From Escherichia phage WPEC4, in sequence record PV682947.1: a stretch of 64,000 bases of DNA; one strand, 5' to 3'. Below are positions 58,861 to 59,062 of the stretch, one piece after another (positions within the stretch are counted from its first letter, which is position 1; the number at the start of each line of letters is the position of its first letter). A program made the translations under genes and the position numbers. The notes under the pieces are model-generated. The model was not told where the DNA came from and did not search any database. It was given only the letters and a program-made list of their open reading frames with translations.

Positions 58861-59062
58861 GTAGTACTCTGTACTCAAGTACTGTACTCTGTACTAGATT
58901 AATAATTATTAAATATTAATAATAAATAATTATTAGATCTAACAAACAGGTACAGTGTATCAGAACTGGTACGTACAGATCAACTTCTATCAATTAAAAA
59001 TAAAATAATAAATTATTATAAATAATACTTGATCTATAGATCAGTATGAAGTACAGTACGGA
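58861..59062. repeat. GTAC-rich palindromic AT-rich intergenic region
   Basis: ~10 GTAC tetramers, TACTCTGTACT x2, AT-rich palindromes, TGATCTATAGATCA at 59030-59043; lies between divergent gene blocks. Confidence 0.5.

Follow-up and report, generated by a model that had tools for sequence, protein, structure and literature searches.

The GTAC-rich region at positions 58861-59062 of a 64,000-nucleotide stretch of Escherichia phage WPEC4 (sequence record PV682947.1; the whole stretch is hereafter called the window) is tentatively interpreted here as an operator array for a DNA-binding protein that would control P2, a promoter predicted at the right-hand end of the region. Judged from its sequence and that of its relatives, this 200-bp stretch would form the spacer and the second promoter of a tandem-promoter control region located between a long leftward gene block and a set of rightward genes that includes a tRNA cluster. 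The feature is thus presented as a repeat or operator array in an otherwise conventional phage early control region. It is not described in the papers searched, and the literature on the origin, promoters, termini or transcriptomes of Phapecoctavirus yielded nothing specific. This is the genus of the phage under study: positions 58000-60000 of the window are 99-100% identical to about 60 Escherichia phages of Phapecoctavirus, which are phAPEC8-like myophages of the subfamily Stephanstirmvirinae with genomes of about 150 kb.

The original prediction, made from the letters of the window, had noticed about ten GTAC tetramers, a duplicated word, AT-rich palindromes and a perfect 14-bp palindrome clustered between two divergent gene blocks, and each of these observations is confirmed. 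The region sits in a 481-bp gap without annotated gene, between a minus-strand and a plus-strand open reading frame (ORF; Table 1). Exactly ten GTACs are present in 58864-59059, with starts at 58864, 58871, 58879, 58884, 58891, 58950, 58969, 58973, 59051 and 59056. The 12-mer GTACTCTGTACT occurs twice, at 58864 and 58884, an A+T-only palindrome extends over two arms that are 89% complementary (58900-58917 and 58918-58935), and the perfect 14-bp palindrome TGATCTATAGATCA is located at 59030-59043. The proposed check for motif enrichment gave a clear answer as well, since only 0.26 GTAC per 200 bp is expected from the window-wide rate and 0.42 from the local base composition, so that the cluster is about 39-fold enriched; the Poisson probability of at least ten GTACs in 200 bp is 2.7e-13, or about 8.5e-11 when corrected for all such windows. 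The next densest 200 bp holds three GTACs, both in the window and in the complete genome used for comparison, that of phage 536P1 (rebuilt, 149,471 bp, 99% identical to the window phage). In 536P1, the cluster is unique, the 12-mer has no other copy and the 14-bp palindrome occurs once. A repeated motif that is enriched beyond chance and confined to a single locus is what would be expected of an operator array.

The arrangement of the repeats points in the same direction. The ten sites comprise five tandem units, a middle group of three and a pair on the predicted -10 element of P2. Read on the opposite strand, the middle group gives CTGTAC, as in the left array; of the 19 copies of this hexamer in the 536P1 genome, 6 lie in the gap, three on each strand. 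In support of the operator reading, the -10 pair of P2 has a perfect 10-bp inverted copy within the heptad array, GTACTGTACT at 58879-58888 being the inverse of 59050-59059; this inverted copy also hints that the left half of the region arose from a duplication of the P2 core. A 10-bp inverted repeat could also belong to an invertible promoter switch of the fimS type, but this candidate was rejected, the orientation being the same in 13 of 13 clade sequences. The groups of sites are separated by two A+T tracts, which are the only stretches with at least 39 A+T in 40 positions in the window as well as in the whole of 536P1. Tract 1 repeats tract 2 in direct orientation with 72% identity and makes up the hairpin core of the predicted folds of the region, whose z-scores are -4.4 as single-stranded DNA and -3.6 as RNA; this unusual self-complementarity was counted in favour of the operator reading. 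The overall dyad symmetry of the 202 bp is only slightly higher than that of composition-matched shuffles (z = 2.6), and a large perfect dyad or hairpin telomere was rejected on this ground.

The link between the array and a promoter comes from a layout that the comparison of sequences shows to be common to four Stephanstirmvirinae lineages: the phAPEC8 clade, its sister clade within the comparison (phiWec188, phiWec179, PsgM04F, one IMG/VR contig and one metagenomic contig; hereafter the phiWec clade), and, as two further lineages, Klebsiella phage phi1_175008 and Justusliebigvirus outra (similar divergent gap before a homologous early block). In this layout, a predicted leftward promoter P_L is followed by a predicted rightward promoter P1 with a CGAGCG-AGCGAG box, a variable spacer, a pure-AT tract, P2 and the first gene. 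More precisely, the layout opens with a leftward promoter-like site bearing the P_L spacer AATCACCTTACCT, which is conserved in outra. The P1 consensus over the four lineages reads TTGAC(T/A), 17-18 nt, TGnTACCCTA, in which ACCCTA is invariant, and the box, CGAGCG(A/C)AGCGAG, is invariant in all four. The spacer that comes after the box starts with GATCTAA and is lineage-specific, and the pure A+T tract abuts P2 in every lineage, being short and interrupted in the phiWec clade. Counterparts of P2 are found at the same position before the first gene, namely TTGACT-17-TAGAGT in outra, TTGACT-18-TAGAGT in phiWec188 and TTGACC-17-TACACT in the Klebsiella phage; the TTGA of the -35 hexamer is invariant in the four lineages, and 20-40 nt separate P2 from the ribosome-binding site of the first rightward gene. 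P2 was not listed by the built-in promoter scan, as it falls below the stricter thresholds of that scan. Nevertheless, its hexamers lie 17 +/- 1 bp apart at a conserved position, with A+T-rich DNA at about -40 to -60, in agreement with a sigma-70 promoter preceded by an UP element. Because of this shared layout, the palindrome TGATCTATAGATCA is taken to be the -35 element and spacer of the predicted P2, GTAC sites 9 and 10 (GTACAGTAC, 59051-59059) to embed its predicted -10 element, and tract 2 to occupy the UP-element position. Among the functions suggested earlier, that of binding sites for a regulator is therefore the best supported, owing to the overlap of the region with the conserved promoter-like P2 and with the P1 leader, although no binding protein was identified.

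The promoter-plus-box module itself (TTGACT, 17-18 nt, TGnTACCCTA, a short variable hairpin and a CGAGCG(A/C)(T)AGCGAGT box) occurs in three copies per genome, found at window positions 58784-58839 and 25048-25106 and at about 74792 on the minus strand of 536P1; the paralogous copies of the box are at window positions 25092-25106 and at 536P1 position 74792. The copy at window position 25073 is apparently directed, in antisense, into a small ORF coding for a hydrophobic product. The conserved box could be an operator at +10 to +25 or a 5' element of the RNA.

Compared with the array, the genome as a whole is poor in GTAC. The 64-kb window contains 82 copies whereas dinucleotide-preserving shuffles give 151, and 536P1 has 137 copies versus 443 expected under a maximal-order Markov model, this ratio of 0.31 being the lowest among the 16 four-base palindromes tested in that genome. 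The corresponding ratio in 50 kb of phiWec188 is 0.61. In addition, 35.6 kb of aligned homologous columns hold 24 GTACs in 536P1 and 83 in phiWec188, of which 6 are common to both, and the outgroup loci contain 2.1-3.7 GTACs per kb, compared with 0.9 per kb in 536P1. According to these sequence comparisons, GTAC depletion is a derived state specific to the phAPEC8 clade. The sites that remain outside the cluster are in coding sequence, in unrelated contexts and with no context preference, which fits a pressure acting on the tetramer itself, such as a restriction enzyme would exert. When the window is compared with 536P1, the GTACs outside the cluster are shared with a Jaccard index of 0.66, versus 0.80-0.88 for control tetramers, whereas 10 of 10 cluster sites are common to both; this latter figure is weak evidence, since conservation around the cluster is above the genome average anyway. 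The sister clade avoids a different palindrome: CTAG is absent from 50 kb of phiWec188 (LC739537.1, 66500-116499), where 76 copies are expected, and is present in 174 copies in 536P1 (observed/expected 0.52). The change of the P1 -10 context from TACCCTAGAAA to TACCCTAAAAA is in line with CTAG avoidance in phiWec188.

Despite the genomic trend towards GTAC loss, 8-10 sites of the array are kept in 12 of 13 sequences of the phAPEC8 clade, the exception being the error-affected assembly of phage BI-EHEC. Since these sites are kept in spite of scattered losses, the array is, in the sequences compared, retained against the trend without any single site being essential. Comparison with related phages, which had been proposed as a check, thus finds the GTAC motifs conserved within the phAPEC8 clade but not in more distant relatives. 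The refuting conditions named in the original prediction therefore give a divided answer, as the GTAC frequency greatly exceeds the expected one.

If the operator reading is correct, the five tandem units, the three middle sites and the -10 pair would all be operators of one protein, encoded either by the phage or by its host. Binding of this protein to the -10 pair would block P2, and cooperative binding to the upstream sites, with looping over the flexible A+T tracts, would strengthen this block; occupation of the upstream sites could also hinder read-through transcripts coming from P1. The rightward unit of early genes and tRNAs would thereby be switched at a set time, and the same locus could additionally act as a replication origin. 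The arrangement of the sites, with one pair on the P2 -10 element, three sites about 80-105 bp upstream, five about 160-190 bp upstream and A+T DNA in between, is by analogy that of looping repression.

Several observations weigh against this interpretation. No recognisable DNA-binding domain was found in the flanking ORFs with Pfam and PHROG, the proteins that flank the gap share 82-92% identity with those of the array-less phiWec clade, and none of the genes adjoining the gap is specific to the GTAC-bearing clade. The homologous spacer of the phiWec clade contains no GTAC at all, and the spacers of this clade, of outra and of the Klebsiella phage show weak two-copy repeats alone, with no comparable array. 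Single sites are dispensable: phAPEC8 and anhysbys have each lost one by substitution (a middle-group site in anhysbys), dw-ec has lost one heptad unit through a slippage-like indel, and EP57 and a variant of nieznany carry deletions that remove two sites each. Besides, the spacings within the heptad array are irregular (7, 8, 5 and 7 bp), and substitution rates at the GTAC positions of the gap, judged by eye, are similar to those outside them. The operator reading is put forward with limited confidence because no protein has been found and because relatives manage the same promoters without the array. As regards the nieznany variant, the two ends of the record (MN850598.1) overlap in the gap, and one of the two copies lacks about 68 bp, and with them GTAC sites 7 and 8 along with the greater part of AT tract 2; this copy reflects either heterogeneity of the population or an assembly artefact at A+T-rich repeats.

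Table 1. Predicted elements, repeats and neighbouring genes of the divergent gap (window positions)
Feature	Position	Strand	Description
Left neighbour ORF	58285-58608	minus	First gene of the long leftward block
Predicted promoter P_L	58653-58681	minus	TTCACT-17-TATCAT, from the promoter scan; would serve the early minus-strand block
Predicted promoter P1	58784-58813	plus	-35 TTGACT at 58784-58789; 18-nt spacer; extended -10 TGcTACCCT at 58805-58813
Conserved box	58827-58839	plus	CGAGCGCAGCGAG; about 10-25 nt 3' of the predicted P1 start
phAPEC8-clade-specific segment	58846-58935		GT-rich run, five GTACT units, AT tract 1; not matched in other lineages
Tandem array	58864-58897	plus	Five GTACT-type units: GTACTCT, GTACTCAA, GTACT, GTACTCT, GTACTAG
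AT tract 1	58895-58938		Near-perfect A+T-only palindrome, centre 58917/58918
Middle GTAC group	58950-58978	plus	GTACAG at 58950; GTACGTACAG at 58969-58978
AT tract 2	58988-59027		Abuts the P2 -35; UP-element position
Predicted promoter P2	59029-59057	plus	-35 TTGATC at 59029-59034; 17-nt spacer; -10 TACAGT at 59052-59057
Ribosome-binding site	59079-59083	plus	GGAGG, first rightward gene
First rightward gene	59090-59275	plus	61 amino acids, Cys/His motif

Concerning the genes on both sides of the gap, the leftward early block consists of small genes without known function. The 61-residue product of the first rightward gene has no known function according to PHROG and Pfam, and remote homologues in Salmonella Seunavirus were rejected, as the matches are not syntenic. 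This gene is followed by two more small ORFs and then by ten tRNA genes at 60068-61993. As for the provenance of the segment, a single scan of IMG/VR and a single scan of metagenomes, both made with the conserved box, returned only members of the two known clades and four chance matches in unrelated high-GC contigs, with no evolutionary intermediate of the gap. A host or plasmid source was rejected, since neither 5,426 E. coli genomes nor the PLSDB plasmids showed any similarity.

Colinearity between the window and other Phapecoctavirus genomes is broken at about 6912/13583, 39412 and 62576. Both the order and the orientation of the segments differ from those in 536P1, the region 57505-61031 being colinear with it. 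For the junctions at 39412 and 62576, no spanning record exists among public phages, and the WPEC1, WPEC2 and WPEC6 records match the window in 12-24 separate pieces, so that the non-colinearity is due either to a real rearrangement or to a scrambled assembly. Elsewhere in the window, near-consensus sigma-70 promoters (TTGACA-17-TAnnnT) are found on the plus strand at 2365, 2724, 3610, 4563 and 6277, and a G+C-rich hairpin such as GGGCGGCAATGGTGCCGC comes no more than about 10 nt after each of them. This module of promoter and hairpin occurs at least ten times in the complete 536P1 genome, with more copies at 83.5-92 kb.

A replication origin had also been among the functions originally suggested, and the locus might, by analogy, be a transcription-activated primary origin of the kind represented by the T7 primary origin and T4 oriF/oriG; this is the main rival of the operator reading, although it is rather doubtful. 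Transcription from P1 into the easily melted A+T tracts would then allow a T7-like primase-helicase and a family A polymerase to load, the GTAC repeats serving as accessory binding sites or being merely structural. In agreement with this model, the two most A+T-rich tracts of the 149-kb genome (at least 39/40) both lie here, 3' of the conserved promoter P1, the order of P1 and AT tract is conserved in the four lineages, and the region has a strong potential to form cruciforms or hairpins. Among the phage genes are those for a family A DNA polymerase and for a T7 gp4-like Toprim+DnaB_C fusion, and no initiator was found among the few ORFs scanned with Pfam. The global minimum of the cumulative GC skew also falls at the gap. 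However, the skew switches four times along the genome, and all four switches coincide with changes of gene orientation. In phage rV5, the GC skew has likewise been reported to follow the orientation of gene blocks (PMC3606486). Since the skew follows gene orientation, it does not constitute independent evidence for an origin. Furthermore, AT tract 2 is explained equally well as the UP element of P2, most of it is missing from the nieznany variant, and neither the GTAC array nor AT tract 1 exists in the sister clade or in other genera, so that they do not form conserved iterons. Consensus sites for DnaA, IHF and Fis were not found in the gap. The origin proposal keeps some plausibility by analogy only, through the AT tracts, the promoter, the T7-like replisome and the skew minimum.

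It is also conceivable, though unlikely, that the array has no function separate from that of the promoters. According to this explanation, the left half would be a decayed inverted or direct duplication of the P2 core and of the A+T tract, expanded by slippage and tolerated since ten GTACs add little restriction risk to about 127 others. The 72% direct repeat formed by the two tracts and the exact inverse relation of GTACTGTACT to the P2 -10 region are in favour of such an origin, as is the resemblance of the reverse complement of the heptad to the -10 regions of relatives (TAGAGT/TACAGT). The variable number of units in dw-ec, the A+T tract indels in BI-EHEC and in metagenomic contig L028, the loss of single sites without obvious cost and the existence of other lineages without the array can be accounted for in the same way. 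What is less easily accommodated is that, in a lineage from which about two thirds of the GTACs have disappeared, 12 of 13 sequences still carry 8-10 of them in non-coding DNA that is free to mutate. In addition, dyad symmetry is weakly above that of shuffles (z = 2.6), and a simple recent duplication is not evident.

The same segment may alternatively act at the RNA level, which seems improbable. In the predicted fold, the P1 leader of about 270 nt pairs the left array with the middle group around an A/U hairpin, and such an element would affect the stability or processing of the transcript, or the extent to which transcription continues into the first gene and the tRNAs. Shuffled sequences give less stable RNA folds (the z-score of -3.6 given above), and a conserved promoter and 5' box precede the region. 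On the other hand, the stems are mostly made of A-U pairs, no Rfam match was obtained at E <= 1 in 58500-60100, and a scan of 57500-60200 gave one terminator-like site, at 58624-58636 in the P_L leader, and none inside the GTAC region. The relatives are either near-identical or devoid of the segment, and P2, which is located 3' of the structure, would yield transcripts that do not contain it.

The contrast between a genome purged of GTAC, presumably by GTAC-specific restriction-modification in hosts, and ten GTACs over P2 and the candidate origin leads to a further explanation, to which very little credence is given. The array would be a restriction-modification sensor, through which methylation or cutting of GTAC by the host sets early transcription, replication start or genome processing at this locus, or else a GTAC-recognising protein of the phage itself would benefit from the avoidance of off-target sites. 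Sensing of methylation has precedents in Dam methylation at oriC, in P1 pac and in the Mu mom promoter. Independently of this explanation, a sign of GTAC modification comes from BI-EHEC (OL505078.1), a genome assembled from Oxford Nanopore reads alone with Guppy 4, Flye and Medaka (PMC8686590). In this record, GTAC is altered at 11 of 13 sites in 3.7 kb and at 21 of 32 (66%) in the first 50 kb, 15 sites reading ATAC, as compared with 4-9% for control tetramers, and some of the changes are single-base insertions inside genes, with indels that disrupt the reading frame. This pattern is probably that of a systematic base-calling error at a modified motif, GTAC having been modified in that DNA preparation; the deposited record is unreliable at GTAC sites. 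The modification is probably derived from the host, given that a crude search of 133 ORFs (120 residues or more) for motifs of a phage GTAC methyltransferase left three candidates, none with a methyltransferase domain, and that dw-ec, also from Indonesia, keeps its GTACs. A host origin of the modification would agree with the circulation, among hosts, of restriction-modification systems that target GTAC and drive its depletion.

Least credible of all is the packaging (pac) or nicking site that had initially been suggested, which would resemble by analogy the phage P1 pac, with clusters of methylatable palindromes flanking a terminase cut: two groups of a short palindromic motif do flank a central segment in a genome-unique locus, a terS-like gene belongs to the same rightward unit and GTAC is apparently modified in the DNA of one relative, but the terS-like ORF (about 62276-62576) lies 3.1 kb downstream, beyond ten tRNA genes, instead of near the array, and identity with the array-less phiWec clade amounts to 85% for the TerS-like protein and 90% for TerL, in keeping with other genes, with no sign that they changed together with the array. 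Moreover, the start points of public records are arbitrary or fall just after the tRNA cluster, and nieznany, the sole record that breaks here, has ends differing by a deletion, which is typical of an assembly break. Phage rV5, which has been described as circularly permuted (PMC3606486), was also counted against this idea. A direct terminal repeat was rejected too: Justusliebigvirus BME3 is reported to have one of 342 bp (PMC12210895), located in a different and non-homologous non-coding region. From the ends of its record (PP239276.1), this terminal repeat is in a non-coding region of about 3 kb composed of repeats at intervals of about 860 bp; some of these repeats include N bases, and they contain Fur-box-like words (GATAATGATTATCATTTGC). 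As for the terS-like ORF, it is the first after the tRNA cluster and encodes 98 residues starting with MPKLKRGRGRP, an AT-hook-like motif. In LR597654.1 it carries the annotation of small terminase subunit; it has no function in PHROGs and is also present in sequence L001 (10288-10584). Directly after it, the window runs into unrelated sequence.

The result is a concrete predicted map of the main divergent control region of Phapecoctavirus phages, which are widely isolated as therapeutic and biocontrol coliphages; this map includes P_L, P1 with its thrice-recurring box, and P2 with the A+T tract upstream, together with a clade-specific and genome-unique repeat array. The loss of GTAC across the genome and its concentration in a local island offer a clean case in which to study the interplay of restriction avoidance with cis-regulatory constraint. 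Should the locus prove to be an operator set or an origin, the array would provide a handle for engineering these phages.

When compared with known systems, the region recalls several of them in part. The words GTACTC, the GTACT repeats and the 9-mer GGTACAGTG are reminiscent of E. coli TrpR operators (mtr: GTACTCGTGTACTGGTACAGTG). However, a TrpR operator was rejected, as GNACT-N8-AGTNC has no match with at most one mismatch in 58600-59100 (elsewhere in the window, 11 matches are found for 19.6 expected), and the start-to-start spacings of GTAC are 12, 13 and 15 rather than 14, and 7 rather than 8. A LexA box (CTGT-N8-ACAG) was likewise rejected, its sole match with at most one mismatch, CTGTACTCAAGTACTG, having ACTG and not ACAG as right half. 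More generally, scans of the gap with the LexA, DnaA, IHF, Fur and Fis consensus sequences gave no convincing match.

The resemblance to E. coli oriC (11 GATC in 245 bp) and to phage P1 pac (7 TGATC(A/G) in 162 bp) is solely one of density of a methylatable tetramer, ten GTACs being grouped here in about 200 bp of one regulatory locus; the motif is GTAC instead of GATC, and there is no link to a terminase or to a SeqA-like protein. The likeness to the T7 primary origin (phi1.1A/B and an AT-rich region) and to the promoter-plus-unwinding origins of T4 is one of layout, with a promoter that reads into the most A+T-rich DNA of the genome and, as in T7, a replisome comprising a family A polymerase and a gp4-like primase-helicase, no initiator being recognised among the few ORFs scanned. 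Unlike in T7, the predicted promoters are of the host sigma-70 type, the A+T tract doubles as the upstream element of P2, and the GTAC repeats have no counterpart.

Finally, the closest parallel is offered by sigma-70 promoters under looping control from several operators, such as those of gal, deo and ara or lambda OL/OR. These systems differ from the present one in that a repressor is known for them, in that their operators are dyads of 14-20 bp rather than cores of 4-7 bp spaced by 5-8 bp, and in that the array is absent here from close relatives that keep the promoters. Yet the region has in common with them several copies of one motif at a locus unique in the genome, one copy lying on the promoter -10 element and others 80-190 bp upstream with A+T DNA in between, and by this analogy the element would work most like a multi-operator promoter region.

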